Of a stretch of DNA of 55,653 nucleotides, positions 7,396 to 10,233 are shown piece by piece (position 1 is the stretch's first letter; every line of letters starts with the position of its first letter). Below the pieces are notes generated by a model. It was not told the DNA's origin, made no database searches, and was given only the letters and a program-made list of their open reading frames with translations. The position numbers were made by a program, and so were the translations under genes. The stretch is from Anaerolineales bacterium (GTDB lineage: Bacteria > Chloroflexota > Anaerolineae > Anaerolineales > E44-bin32). The DNA lies in assembly GCA_041302385.1 (NCBI GenBank), contig JBFYRF010000095.1, forward strand, positions 1-55,653, written 5' to 3'.

Positions 7396-8562
7396 TCAGT
7401 ACAGCGGCAGGCTGAGATCGACCTGCTCGGCCCAGGCATTGATCCCGCCGCGCAGGTTCTTGACCTTGCGGAAGCCCGCCCCGGCCAGCAGTTCGAGCGC
7501 CCGCGCCGAGCGCGTCCCGGACTTGCAGAACACGACCATTTCCCGGGCACTGTCCAACTCGTGCAGCCGGGAGGCCAGCTGACCGAGCGGGATCAGATCG
7601 GCGCCGGCGATCTGCGAGATCTGCAACTCGTGGGGTTCCCGAACGTCCAGCAGCTGCAGCTTCTCTCCGGCGGCCAGGCGCTGCGAGACCTCGGCTGGCT
7701 CGATCTCCCACTCGGACGCCAGGCCGCTGCCTTCCCGGTCGTGGCCGGGGACGCCGCAGAAGGCCTCGTAGTCAATCAGCTCGGTCACCTCGGGCTCCGC
7801 CGAGCACACCTTGCAGGTTGGATTCTTGTTGAGGGTCAACTCGTCGAAGGACATCGACAACGCTTCATACACCAGCAGCTTGCCGATCAGCGGTCGGCCG
7901 ATCCCCAGCAGAACCTTCAACGCCTCGGTGGCCTGCAGCGTGCCGATCGTCCCCGGCAAGACCCCGAACACCCCACCTTCGGCGCAGGATGGGACCAGCC
8001 CTGGAGGAGGCGGCTCGGGGAACAGGCAGCGGTAGCAGGGACCGCGATCGGCCCAGAACACACTGACCTGTCCCTCAAAGCGGAAGATCGAACCGTAGAT
8101 GTTTGGCTTGTGGGTAAGCACGCACAGATCGTTCACCAGGTAGCGCGTCGGGAAGTTGTCGGTCCCGTCGATGATCATCCCGTAGGGCTCGGCGATCCGG
8201 AAGGCGTTCTCCGAGGTGAACGGTTCGTCGTAGACGTCGATCTGGATGGACGGGTTGATGTCGAGCAGACGCTTGCAGGCTGACTCGACCTTGCGCTCCC
8301 CCAGCGTGGACGTGCCATGGACGATCTGCCGCTGCAAGTTGGTGAAATCGACCTGGTCGTAGTCGACCAATCCGATCCGCCCGACGCCGGCCGCCGCAAG
8401 GTACATCGAGACCGGCGAGCCCAGTCCACCCGTCCCGATGATCAGCACCGAGGAATCCTTGAGTCGCTGCTGGCCGGCCAGCCCGACTTCTGACATCAGC
8501 AGATGGCGCGAGTAGCGCAGGATCTCTTCGTGCGACAGGGGTTGCGGGGTCGGGTCTGGCAT
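7396..8562 (-). CDS. moeZ: MoeZ-type adenylyltransferase/sulfurtransferase (ThiF/MoeB E1-like domain plus C-terminal rhodanese)
   Basis: RYSRHLL..GQQRL, the nucleotide loop IIGTGGLGSP, zinc CxxC pairs (CYRC, CKVC), and a C-terminal rhodanese with active-site CKSGTRS. Start at MPDPTPQ (ATG ending at 8562). Confidence 0.85.
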   Translation of the reverse strand: MPDPTPQPLSHEEILRYSRHLLMSEVGLAGQQRLKDSSVLIIGTGGLGSPVSMYLAAAGVGRIGLVDYDQVDFTNLQRQIVHGTSTLGERKVESACKRLLDINPSIQIDVYDEPFTSENAFRIAEPYGMIIDGTDNFPTRYLVNDLCVLTHKPNIYGSIFRFEGQVSVFWADRGPCYRCLFPEPPPPGLVPSCAEGGVFGVLPGTIGTLQATEALKVLLGIGRPLIGKLLVYEALSMSFDELTLNKNPTCKVCSAEPEVTELIDYEAFCGVPGHDREGSGLASEWEIEPAEVSQRLAAGEKLQLLDVREPHELQISQIAGADLIPLGQLASRLHELDSAREMVVFCKSGTRSARALELLAGAGFRKVKNLRGGINAWAEQVDLSLPLY

Positions 8563-8591: not shown

Positions 8592-9044
8592 CTACCCTCG
8601 AGCTTGCGCCGGCCTGGCCGGAACCCGCGAAGGGTCGGGTGGCCGCTCGCCCAGGGCAGCCAGCTGGCTGGCCAAACGGGCCCCGGAGGTGACGCCGTGA
8701 TTCATTGCGCCCGGGCGACCCCGCGCGTCGGGCAGGAAGTTGATGGGCACGCCAAGCACGCCCCAGGCGTCCGCCAGGCGGGTCTGAGGGGAAGCGTCGG
8801 TCTCTACGACTTGCAGGCTCCTGCCGAAACGCTGACGCAGGCGCTCGAGGGCAGGCCGCTGCACAGTGCGGCATGGCTGAAAGCCAGGTGGGGTGAAGGT
8901 GAGAATCGCCGGACGGCCGCGCCGGTAACCTGGCAGGTCTTGGGCTGCCCTGCTCGCTCGCCGCAGGCTGAGTCTGCACAGTCCCCAGCCGGCAAGAGCC
9001 CCAGGCGCCAGCAGCATCAGAGCGACAACGATCCGTTCGTGCAT
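8592..9044 (-). CDS. membrane-anchored thioredoxin-fold protein with a single-Cys site
   Basis: N-terminal TM (IVVALMLLAPGALAGW), then a thioredoxin-like order ILTFTPPGFQPC...LQVVETD...WGVLGVPINF. The usual WCxxC is reduced to FQPC. The ATG lies 2 nt after the upstream TAG. Confidence 0.55.
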   Translation of the reverse strand: MHERIVVALMLLAPGALAGWGLCRLSLRRASRAAQDLPGYRRGRPAILTFTPPGFQPCRTVQRPALERLRQRFGRSLQVVETDASPQTRLADAWGVLGVPINFLPDARGRPGAMNHGVTSGARLASQLAALGERPPDPSRVPARPAQARG

Positions 9045-9046
9045 GA

Positions 9047-9337
9047 CTAGCGCCTGGGACGGTGGCCAGGATCCGCGCCGGGCGGCGCAGTCGCCGAGAA
9101 TCCGGGGACTGCGGCGCGTTGCAGCCCGTGGTAGAGCGCACATCCTGCGCAGAGCTCGAGGACCAAGTTGGCTGCCGCCAGAGCGATCACGATCCAGGCC
9201 AGCGAACAAGCGAACGCCGGCGCTCCGGCCGGGAACCCTGGCAGCGAAAGCGCAAGTGCGGCCGCGCCCGGTCCCTGGGCGAAACGGTGCGGTTGCGGAT
9301 GATCCTGTAACACCAGCGAACGCACCCAGCCGAGGGG
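9047..9337 (-). other. C-terminal half of a DUF4395-like membrane domain, in frame with the cysO fusion but separated from it by the TGA at 9338-9340
   Basis: Same reading frame as 9338..9796 (an offset of 291 nt, which is 97 codons). Encodes ..HPQPHRFAQGPGAAALAL...LELCAGCALYHG, the conserved second half of DUF4395. Confidence 0.6.
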
Positions 9338-9796
9338 TCACAGCCCGCCATAGATCGGCCGGAAGCTCGGCCGGGAAGCCAGCGCGCCAATCGTCAGGGT
9401 GGCTGCCACTGCGGCGAGCAGCCAGATGACATTGAGGACGTAGGCGGCGAGCAGGAGCACGATGATGATGGCCTGGCTGACTCTCCGGGTTGCATGGTCA
9501 ACCGACTGAAGCGGGGCGGCGTCAACGCCGCCGGCGATGCTCGGCACGATCATCATCCGGTCTCCGGCCGTCAGGGGCGTGGCACCGCCCTGCAGGCTGC
9601 GCACGTCCTGCTCGTTGACAAACAGGTTGACATACTGCCGCAGGGTCTCGGTCTCGTCATACAGATGGGGATTCAACGCCGGGAAGCGCTCGGTGAGAAC
9701 CTCCAGGGCGTGGTCTACGGAGACCGCGTCAAGCGTGACTTCCTTCTGGCCGTCGGCGTACGGGCGCAGCGCCGACGGGATGCGAACGGTGATCAT
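9338..9796 (-). CDS. cysO: CysO-like ubiquitin-fold sulfur carrier, fused beyond its Gly-Gly to the N-terminal half of a DUF4395-like membrane domain
   Basis: MITVRIPSALRPYADGQKEV..YVNLFVNEQDVRSL..GDRMMIVPSIAGG is colinear with mycobacterial CysO. No stop follows the GG, and the frame continues VD..TRRVSQAIIIVLLLAAYVLNVIWLLAAVAATL..RPIYGGL-TGA. The ATG overlaps the mec stop (ATGA). Confidence 0.8.
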   Translation of the reverse strand: MITVRIPSALRPYADGQKEVTLDAVSVDHALEVLTERFPALNPHLYDETETLRQYVNLFVNEQDVRSLQGGATPLTAGDRMMIVPSIAGGVDAAPLQSVDHATRRVSQAIIIVLLLAAYVLNVIWLLAAVAATLTIGALASRPSFRPIYGGL

Positions 9797-10233
9797 GATG
9801 CCTCCTCGGGCAGGATCTCCAACGGTTCTTGGACCATCTCGGCGCGGTCTTCGGTCAGCCGCCAGCAGCGGCTCTCGACGGCGCGGCCGGCCCGAACGCT
9901 GGTGATGACGTATGAGTAGAAGGGCAGAGCCCAATCCCGGTCGAACTCCGAGGGGCGGGGCGGATGATCGGGATGCGAGTGATAGACGCCCAGGATATCG
10001 AGGCCCAGGCGGTCGGCTTCGGCTTCGGCGCGCAGCATGTCGTCCGCCGCCAGGCGGTAGCGCCGGCCGCGCGCCGTGACTTCGAAGGAGTTTGCCAGCC
10101 GGAGCAGGCTTGACCCATGGCGGACGTCCCCCTGCAAGTGTCCCAGGATCAGTCCGGCGCCCTCTTCTGGATAGTGCGCCTGACCATCGTCCCAGATCCG
10201 CTGGAGCACCGATTGCGGCAGACAGAGAGTCAT
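9793..10233 (-). CDS. mec: JAMM/MPN+ zinc metalloprotease (Mec-like)
   Basis: Catalytic Glu (YPEEGAGLILG) and JAMM motif HSHPDHPPRPSEFD (HxHx7SxxD). 146 aa. ATGA overlaps with both cysM and cysO. Confidence 0.85.
   Translation of the reverse strand: MTLCLPQSVLQRIWDDGQAHYPEEGAGLILGHLQGDVRHGSSLLRLANSFEVTARGRRYRLAADDMLRAEAEADRLGLDILGVYHSHPDHPPRPSEFDRDWALPFYSYVITSVRAGRAVESRCWRLTEDRAEMVQEPLEILPEEAS

Follow-up and report, generated by a model that had tools for sequence, protein, structure and literature searches.

The minus strand of contig JBFYRF010000095.1, a 55,653-nt stretch from an Anaerolineales bacterium that is called the window here, carries a cysO gene whose frame does not end at the Gly-Gly of the encoded sulfur carrier but runs on into the membrane domain DUF4395. 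We consider it probable, taking all the evidence together, that the locus is an Anaerolineae CysO operon in which the carrier is made as a fusion and would be cut after Gly-Gly by the neighboring JAMM protease Mec, and in which an accessory module of DUF4395 and a thioredoxin has been lost in this species while the core cysteine pathway has been kept.

The cysO frame passes Gly-Gly and enters DUF4395

Direct reading of the minus strand showed that, after the Gly-Gly codons (GGC GGC, 9532-9527), the frame continues with GTT GAC and no stop. The encoded product is 152 residues long, with 62 codons after Gly-Gly, and is ended by a TGA at 9340-9338; beyond this TGA the frame stays open for 96 further codons, to a TAG at 9049-9047. 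For the Pfam search, a placeholder residue was set in place of the TGA. In the resulting bridged translation, ThiS was found at residues 4-90 (E = 1.8e-9; score 38.4 bits, cut-off 22.5) and DUF4395 at residues 99-227, spanning the TGA and covering positions 1-130 of the 130 in the profile (E = 9.7e-18). The DUF4395 match is colinear across the TGA and does not represent a chance open frame in DNA of 65.6% GC. The NCBIfam models for the SAMP1/MoaD families also matched the CysO-like domain, both scoring under their cut-offs. These results bear out a first-pass annotation made from the letters of this DNA, which had described a missing stop after Gly-Gly, a frame running into DUF4395, and a single in-frame TGA followed by colinear DUF4395 elements.

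The window gene has the recognizable fold of the CysO sulfur carriers, Gly-Gly at the end of that fold and a gene association with E1, CysM and Mec, but its Gly-Gly is not the free C-terminus of the translated product. It shares with precursor-type carriers the residues encoded past Gly-Gly and a neighboring JAMM gene with an intact motif. The TGA interrupts DUF4395 (PF14340) after membrane helix 2, in the loop between helices 2 and 3; the complete domain is not present in one polypeptide, and the full match is obtained only when the TGA is bridged.

The fusion is common in Anaerolineae

A search of 5.8 billion proteins (E <= 1e-5) found ThiS and DUF4395 together in one uninterrupted open reading frame (ORF) of ~250 residues in at least 228 protein clusters. 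Of the 120 clusters listed, almost all are 245-260 residues long and contain PF02597 (ThiS) together with PF14340, and the source labels, where given, are Chloroflexota or Anaerolineales. In the databases these proteins go by names such as "DUF4395 family protein" and "molybdopterin converting factor small subunit". The fused gene is genuine, common in Anaerolineae and not peculiar to this window. An alignment of 112 fused homologs showed A88, G89 and G90 to be invariant, and the linker from Gly-Gly to the VDH motif of DUF4395 measured 3 to 12 residues among related loci.

The closest intact homolog, P0001, is 68% identical overall. Its AlphaFold2 (AF2) model, with a mean predicted local distance difference test score (pLDDT) of 90.9, comprises a beta-grasp domain and, after it, four long helices (101-120, 124-140, 167-189 and 193-213), and the score falls below 50 only at residues 88-91, the Gly-Gly junction. 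With this model, Foldseek returned Mycobacterium tuberculosis CysO as the best match in the PDB (3dwg_C, E = 2.4e-7, TM score 0.86, 36% identity), ahead of archaeal SAMP1 proteins and Urm1, in agreement with the first-pass assignment of the N-terminal domain as CysO-like. All Foldseek matches in the PDB were to the ThiS fold; the best for the DUF4395 membrane part was at E ~0.7, with no VKOR or DsbB among the matches, and a profile search of PDB sequences for DUF4395 gave a single chance match (E = 0.65).

Fused and free forms of CysO share one operon

To compare gene order, our own profiles for six protein families were run over all 88 fetched loci, 84 of them non-redundant. The recurrent operon order is cysM (PALP), mec (JAB), cysO::DUF4395, thioredoxin, moeZ (ThiF-Rhodanese). 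Fused cysO::DUF4395 was found in 24 of the 84 non-redundant loci, so that the two parts are not always encoded by separate genes. In 12/84, cysO and DUF4395 are adjacent but separate, in different frames; in 19/84, cysO lies downstream of the thioredoxin gene, next to moeZ; a further 28/84 have the DUF4395-thioredoxin pair with no cysO in the fetched stretch, and 1/84 has another order. Within ~5 kb, the fused loci contain no second ThiS gene. In a neighbor-joining (NJ) tree built from the DUF4395 domain, fused forms are scattered among unfused ones, which requires at least 11 changes of state, a rough count for a domain of ~160 residues. Judged by sequence, the fused and free forms of CysO appear to be interchangeable in the same operon.

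The free CysO proteins themselves end with GG or with GG plus 1-19 residues. Tails past Gly-Gly include GG-SS, GG-RP, GG-AKG and GG-RPVAAQ..., and tailed free CysO was recorded in loci L010, L016, L017, L023, L026, L029, L035, L041, L046, L050, L061-L064, L066, L068, L069 and L087. Trimming past Gly-Gly may be a general rule for CysO in Anaerolineae.

In one Chloroflexota metagenome-assembled genome (MAG), at L032:5944-7377, CysO is fused in frame to its own E1-rhodanese MoeZ (...SIAGGSSAPLLPELTREEILRYSRHLL...). The junction reads ..SIAGG SSAPLLPELTREEILRYSRHLL.., a second type of carrier fusion that would need a cut after Gly-Gly. Core genes are broken in some other MAGs, with PALP in two pieces in L003, L023 and L027 and ThiF-Rhodanese in three pieces in L027. 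These are probably assembly frameshifts, and stops seen there in a single assembly therefore need independent assemblies.

CysO is likely released at Gly-Gly, with Mec as the candidate protease

Since the same operon works with a free CysO ending at Gly-Gly, Gly-Gly is invariant in the fusions, and the fused loci have no second carrier gene, the fused CysO must be released. We propose that a cut after Gly-Gly would free CysO for adenylation and thiocarboxylation by MoeZ and for use by CysM. A short flexible linker is predicted to begin right after the invariant Gly-Gly, and both the low confidence of the P0001 model at residues 88-91 and the variable linker of 3-12 residues mark this position as the likely release site. 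The cut would be made by Mec, whose gene is adjacent and translationally coupled to cysO. Mec hydrolyses the CysO-cysteine bond, and by analogy with this action, and with the MoaX, QbsE/QbsD and CxnE/CxnF systems, it is most likely the releasing protease. A precursor matured by Mec would be the most economical reading of the fusion.

Earlier work leads in the same direction. This type of operon has been catalogued, with a Chloroflexus example, as type 4c (Iyer, Burroughs and Aravind, 2006, PMC1779556), and JAB peptidases were predicted to free fused ThiS/MoaD domains (PMC1779556). For QbsE (GG-CF) and CxnE (GG plus ten residues), the published description is of precursors that JAMM proteases shorten (PMC5925218). 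MoaX, which joins MoaD to MoaE, requires a cut between Gly82 and Ser83 to be active (PMC4326299).

Alternatively, the ThiS domain might never be released and instead act as a permanent docking or regulatory tether recruiting MoeZ, CysM or Mec to the membrane protein, with another, free carrier performing the sulfur chemistry. Beta-grasp domains in fusions often serve as adaptors (PMC1779556), and the conserved VDH motif of DUF4395 lies just 3-12 residues from Gly-Gly. We nevertheless regard a tether as unlikely. AGG is invariant in 112/112 fused proteins, as it is in free carriers, no second ThiS gene accompanies the fused loci within ~5 kb, and free and fused forms interleave phylogenetically at the same operon position. 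The Gly-Gly junction is also the sole low-confidence stretch of the P0001 model, and MoaX provides a precedent in which cleavage after GG is needed for activity (PMC4326299).

DUF4395 and its thioredoxin partner have probably decayed in this lineage

A full CysO-DUF4395 product, as the first-pass annotation had it, is not what this locus encodes: the TGA is a nonsense codon fixed in the lineage at a Lys/Arg column, and the product is CysO with a 62-residue remnant. The TGA stands at 9338-9340 in 12/12 aligned DNAs, with the same GGCGGCGTT junction in all. The identical 152-residue product was found on 22 contigs from at least 10 samples (six Joint Genome Institute (JGI) metagenomes, three NCBI MAGs and one Logan run), and the five protein variants all end at the same codon. 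These independent assemblies were used in place of reads to look for a stop or frameshift directly after Gly-Gly, and 12/12 show no stop there. In 83 species, the column of the TGA holds Lys in 57, Arg in 24, Ala in 1 and Leu in 1, and never Cys. The search of 5.8 billion proteins found no intact allele in the same species, the best full-length match being 68% identical.

The nearest intact relative, at 68% amino acid identity, is too divergent for an unsaturated synonymous distance (dS), and we therefore relied on departures at conserved columns and on polymorphism within the population. Conserved columns were those at least 90% conserved across species, and departures were counted per protein. 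The excess in the window falls on DUF4395 and the thioredoxin (Table 1).

Table 1. Departures from conserved columns in the window proteins
Protein or domain	Departures / conserved columns	Unique to window	Other species
DUF4395	15/54	10	mean 1.6, maximum 5
Thioredoxin	4/25	4	maximum 3 unique
ThiS	3/26	0	window within range
JAB	3/36	0	maximum 3
PALP	5/74	3	window within range
ThiF-Rhodanese	6/208	3	window within range

The set of residues invariant in the DUF4395 family (VDH, PHRFAQ, W and NLFxGFCxGCxxYYW) is altered in the window copy. Past the TGA, three residues invariant in the 112 fused homologs are changed (W197C, G214E and Y223H), as is the near-invariant W224, to G. This segment departs at 7 columns of at least 90% conservation; the 112 homologs average 1.07 such departures, and none exceeds 6. 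Identity to P0001 is 84% for ThiS, and 50% and 64% for the parts of DUF4395 before and after the TGA; in pairs of intact homologs, the ThiS and DUF4395 domains are equally conserved. The thioredoxin-like protein has FQPC at its active site, not the CxxC of thioredoxins, with the Phe codon TTT at 8880-8882 (C to F in the alignment). This change was present in 12/12 population sequences (the window and 11 relatives) and, among resolved loci, is limited to this lineage.

Polymorphism among the 12 population sequences shows a corresponding pattern. The segment past the TGA has 5 nonsynonymous and 5 synonymous polymorphisms in 288 nt, the thioredoxin-like gene carries several common nonsynonymous polymorphisms, and the ThiS domain has zero variable sites. 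Of the common nonsynonymous polymorphisms, the post-TGA segment and the thioredoxin-like gene together (738 nt) hold 6, and the four core genes (2419 nt) hold 1 (Fisher p = 9e-4, approximate because the sites are linked). Gene callers on the 10 population contigs listed left the full thioredoxin-like ORF uncalled, and several call an antisense ORF of 117 residues there. In the population alignment, mec has 28 variable sites at 9829-10141, all singletons, and missing-data counts suggest that they come mostly from one contig, which could be a divergent haplotype, a recombinant or a chimeric assembly. These 28 singletons were left out of the comparison of common polymorphisms.

CysO, Mec, CysM and MoeZ look intact in sequence, and DUF4395 and its thioredoxin partner show the signature of relaxed constraint. 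On the simplest view, the DUF4395-thioredoxin module has been lost in this species while the CysO pathway has stayed, and the fusion gene keeps its front because that front is cysO. The losses would comprise the fixed Lys/Arg-to-TGA change, the many substitutions at invariant DUF4395 positions, and the replacement of the thioredoxin active-site Cys by Phe. The decay of both partners with the core pathway kept suggests that the module is accessory rather than essential. The present product would be CysO with a 62-residue hydrophobic remnant tail (two hydrophobic helices) that would still need trimming at Gly-Gly, presumably by Mec in this species also.

Other readings of the TGA

Read-through or recoding of the TGA could still yield a full, working CysO-DUF4395 protein. 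The frame is kept for 96 codons past the TGA without a stop or indel, the DUF4395 match stays in register, and the CxGC and PHRFAQ motifs are retained. The base after the TGA is C, and in E. coli a C at this position makes termination at UGA weak and leaky. We nonetheless judge this improbable, as the homologs have Lys or Arg in this column and no Cys, the invariant W, G and Y beside CxGC are changed, common nonsynonymous polymorphisms have accumulated past the stop, and the thioredoxin partner is without its catalytic Cys. The predicted hairpin downstream is at chance level: the 76 nt from just before the TGA fold with a minimum free energy of -27.3 kcal/mol, and shuffled sequences average -26.5 (z = -0.22). 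Selenocysteine, considered as one form of recoding, was rejected, given Lys or Arg at the column in 81/83 species, never Cys, no hairpin beyond chance and no relevant Rfam match; the only Rfam match across the window is one tRNA.

A second possibility, to which we give slightly less weight again, is a split DUF4395, in which CysO with helices 1-2 and a separate product of 92 residues (helices 3-4) starting at GTG 9325 would rejoin in the membrane. Termination-reinitiation is conceivable at this in-frame GTG, 13 nt past the TGA, and the downstream half retains the CxGC motif. However, the GTG has no clear Shine-Dalgarno sequence upstream, and the gene callers leave the downstream half uncalled on the 10 population contigs listed. 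That half also shows the surplus of substitutions at invariant sites and the polymorphism pattern described above, which speak against its being under purifying selection. Such an arrangement is also absent from all others of the 84 species-level loci. That the missing stop after Gly-Gly, or the TGA, is a sequencing or assembly artefact is scarcely credible, for although the source is probably metagenome-derived and some related MAGs have broken genes (L003, L023 and L027), the JGI, NCBI and Logan assemblies agree on the product, its five variants share the stop, and all 12 DNAs concur.

Our preferred explanation, a Mec-matured fusion whose accessory module has been lost here, has several points to be set against it. 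The cut after Gly-Gly, and Mec as its agent, are inferred. The polymorphism test takes linked sites as independent and is approximate, and the NJ tree of a 160-residue domain is noisy, which makes the count of fusions and fissions rough. With 96 codons open past the TGA and PHRFAQ and CxGC kept, some read-through or a recent inactivation is possible. A second, intact copy of DUF4395 and thioredoxin could possibly lie outside the 55.6-kb window; our own profiles found no second copy of either within it. The cytoplasmic topology predicted below rests on the positive-inside rule and on the fusions.

DUF4395 and thioredoxin as a two-protein module

DUF4395 is widespread, with ~811 clusters at 50% identity in a profile search of 1.84 billion representative proteins (E <= 1e-3). 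A profile of DUF4395 alone, with one genome per species, found relatives, fused or not, in at least 551 species genomes; the best 80 of these are almost all Anaerolineae, including the cultured Thermanaerothrix daxensis and T. solaris. A thioredoxin gene follows DUF4395 after 6-92 nt in 88/88 loci, and its CxxC motif is present in 76 of the 78 in which the search pattern resolved the motif. Natural DUF4395::thioredoxin fusions were also found (P0262, 268 residues; P0368, 271 residues). The literature searched holds passing mentions of DUF4395 with no functional data, and tblastn of the domain against plasmids gave no match. From these patterns, DUF4395 and thioredoxin appear to be a separate two-protein accessory module.

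DUF4395-thioredoxin pairs without cysO occur in MAGs labeled Spirochaetia or Spirochaetota (L019, L036, L052, L053, L059, L083 and L085). They group together on the DUF4395 tree, and either represent a true second phylum or are mis-binned contigs. In L033, L038, L055, L075, L085 and L087, a PALP cysteine-synthase-like gene comes after the pair, and no JAB was seen in the stretch that was fetched; this order is another recurrent tie of the module to cysteine synthesis.

The fusions allow a topology to be predicted. A cytoplasmic ThiS domain would place the DUF4395 N-terminus in the cytoplasm, and four helices would leave the long basic helix 2-3 loop and the C-terminal tail on the same side. 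The conserved polar residues D100/H101, D165, H170/R171, C216-x-G-C219, Y222/Y223 and R227 would then lie at the cytoplasmic membrane surface. The linker between the domains of P0262 and P0368 is hydrophilic, positively charged and without a membrane helix, an arrangement that would set the thioredoxin and the C-terminus of DUF4395 on one side of the membrane. The separate thioredoxins begin with a short hydrophobic anchor followed by a run of Arg, and their CxxC is predicted at the cytoplasmic face, on the side of the conserved DUF4395 residues. VKOR and DsbB were considered as structural relatives of DUF4395 and rejected, neither Foldseek nor PDB profile searches lending support; they are kept as an analogy only.

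As a speculative guess, the pair might act as a dithiol or sulfur relay serving MoeZ and CysO, for example by supplying sulfur to MoeZ or by resolving a MoeZ acyl-disulfide intermediate. The fuller proposal, that DUF4395 and thioredoxin form an unrecognized, cytoplasm-facing membrane thiol or sulfur relay for the CysO/MoeZ route to cysteine, and that CysO is made as a fusion to this relay and freed by Mec, is one we hold only tentatively and think doubtful as it stands. If true, it would provide a bacterial counterpart of the eukaryotic ubiquitin-fusion precursors, and the window species would be a natural double knock-out of the relay.

Implications for annotation and function

Precursor or fused ubiquitin-fold sulfur carriers are already known, as MoaX, QbsE and CxnE. 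The first-pass suggestion that the architecture was undescribed needs correction: hundreds of Anaerolineae sequences with it are public, and the idea of release by JAB was published in 2006 (PMC1779556). The novelty lies in the conserved membrane partner, and in the link of DUF4395 to thioredoxin and to CysO-dependent cysteine synthesis; our literature search found neither of these described. The thioredoxin-like gene before moeZ, the truncation by the TGA after helix 2, and the abundance of the fusion in public data are additions to the first-pass annotation.

Three independent fusions, ThiS::DUF4395, DUF4395::thioredoxin and ThiS::MoeZ, along with the strict pairing, tie DUF4395 to thioredoxin and the CysO pathway and give a lead to its function. 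The fusion is a natural substrate with which to ask whether Mec-type JAMM proteases also process precursors, a question that bears on the origin of ubiquitin-type processing in bacteria. The window locus is itself a degenerate copy, and its species a natural knock-out of the DUF4395-thioredoxin module. A fitting annotation would name cysO, the truncated remnant of DUF4395 attached to it and the degenerate thioredoxin next door, rather than an intact fusion or a selenoprotein.

The operon in the window

Five co-directional genes, closely packed or overlapping, occupy the minus strand from 11180 to 7396 (Table 2). The mec translation has an intact E...HSHx7Sx2D motif (E..HSHPDHPPRPSEFD). Its stop and the cysO start overlap as ATGA, as the first-pass annotation had noted, and the same 4-nt overlap is found in 17 related loci. 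The moeZ ATG, at 8562, lies 1.23 kb downstream of the cysO start, matching the ~1.2 kb given there. The window copy of the thioredoxin-like gene has no Pfam match at E <= 0.01.

Table 2. Features of the cysO operon in the window
Feature	Position	Strand	Evidence or remarks
cysO::DUF4395 frame	start ATG 9796-9794	(-)	product begins MITVRIP, reaches MMIVPSIAGG
CysO-like ubiquitin-fold sulfur-carrier domain, residues 1-90, ending SIAGG (86-90)	9527..9796	(-)	Pfam ThiS
Linker and first half of DUF4395 (VDH motif, membrane helices 1-2), residues 91-152	9341..9526	(-)	own DUF4395 profile positions 4-61; helices from AF2 model of homolog
In-frame TGA within DUF4395, fixed nonsense codon	9338..9340	(-)	TGA in 12/12 sequences
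Second half of DUF4395 (PHRFAQ motif, helices 3-4, CxGC motif, Pro-rich tail), apparently a decaying remnant past the stop	9050..9337	(-)	own profile positions 65-158, E = 6e-33
cysM-like PLP (pyridoxal phosphate)-dependent cysteine synthase, 316 residues	10230..11180	(-)	Pfam PALP E = 1.6e-61; full-length match to own PALP profile
mec-like JAMM/Prok-JAB metalloprotease, 146 residues	9793..10233	(-)	Pfam Prok-JAB E = 6.9e-22
Membrane-anchored thioredoxin-like gene between fusion and moeZ	8592..9044	(-)	orthologs match PF00085
moeZ-like E1 (ThiF) and rhodanese, 388 residues	7396..8562	(-)	Pfam ThiF E = 3.6e-80, Rhodanese E = 4.9e-16

Comparison with known systems

The window contains all four components of the M. 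tuberculosis CysO/CysM/Mec/MoeZ pathway, the carrier, the PLP-dependent cysteine synthase, the JAMM protease and the E1-rhodanese. Mycobacterial CysO ends at Gly-Gly, whereas the window frame enters a membrane domain, and the window operon differs further in the inserted DUF4395-thioredoxin pair and in having moeZ within the operon. The pair itself resembles VKOR-thioredoxin and DsbB/DsbA, where a membrane protein of four helices, bearing a CxxC-type motif at the surface of the membrane, is paired with, or fused to, a thioredoxin-fold partner. However, the active face of DUF4395 is predicted to be cytoplasmic while theirs is periplasmic, and DUF4395 is not a member of either family. Eukaryotic ubiquitin precursors, N-terminal fusions to ribosomal proteins from which ubiquitin is released at Gly-Gly by deubiquitinase-type proteases, giving equimolar parts, are alike in logic only, as the domain of life, the protease and the partner differ.

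MoaX is closer, with a ubiquitin-fold carrier as the N-terminal part of a fusion to a functional partner, cut exactly after Gly-Gly (PMC4326299). Its partner is a soluble enzyme subunit that binds the carrier C-terminus, whereas the Anaerolineae partner is a four-helix membrane protein, and the Anaerolineae fusion, unlike MoaX, has a candidate protease in the adjoining JAMM gene. In QbsE/QbsD and CxnE/CxnF, as here, there are residues past Gly-Gly and a neighboring JAMM protease proposed or reported to remove them before adenylation (PMC5925218), and many free CysO proteins of Anaerolineae likewise carry 1-19 extra residues. The extensions of QbsE and CxnE are short peptides in secondary-metabolite clusters; that of the Anaerolineae carrier is a whole domain of ~160 residues, with a 62-residue remnant in the window, in a primary cysteine pathway.

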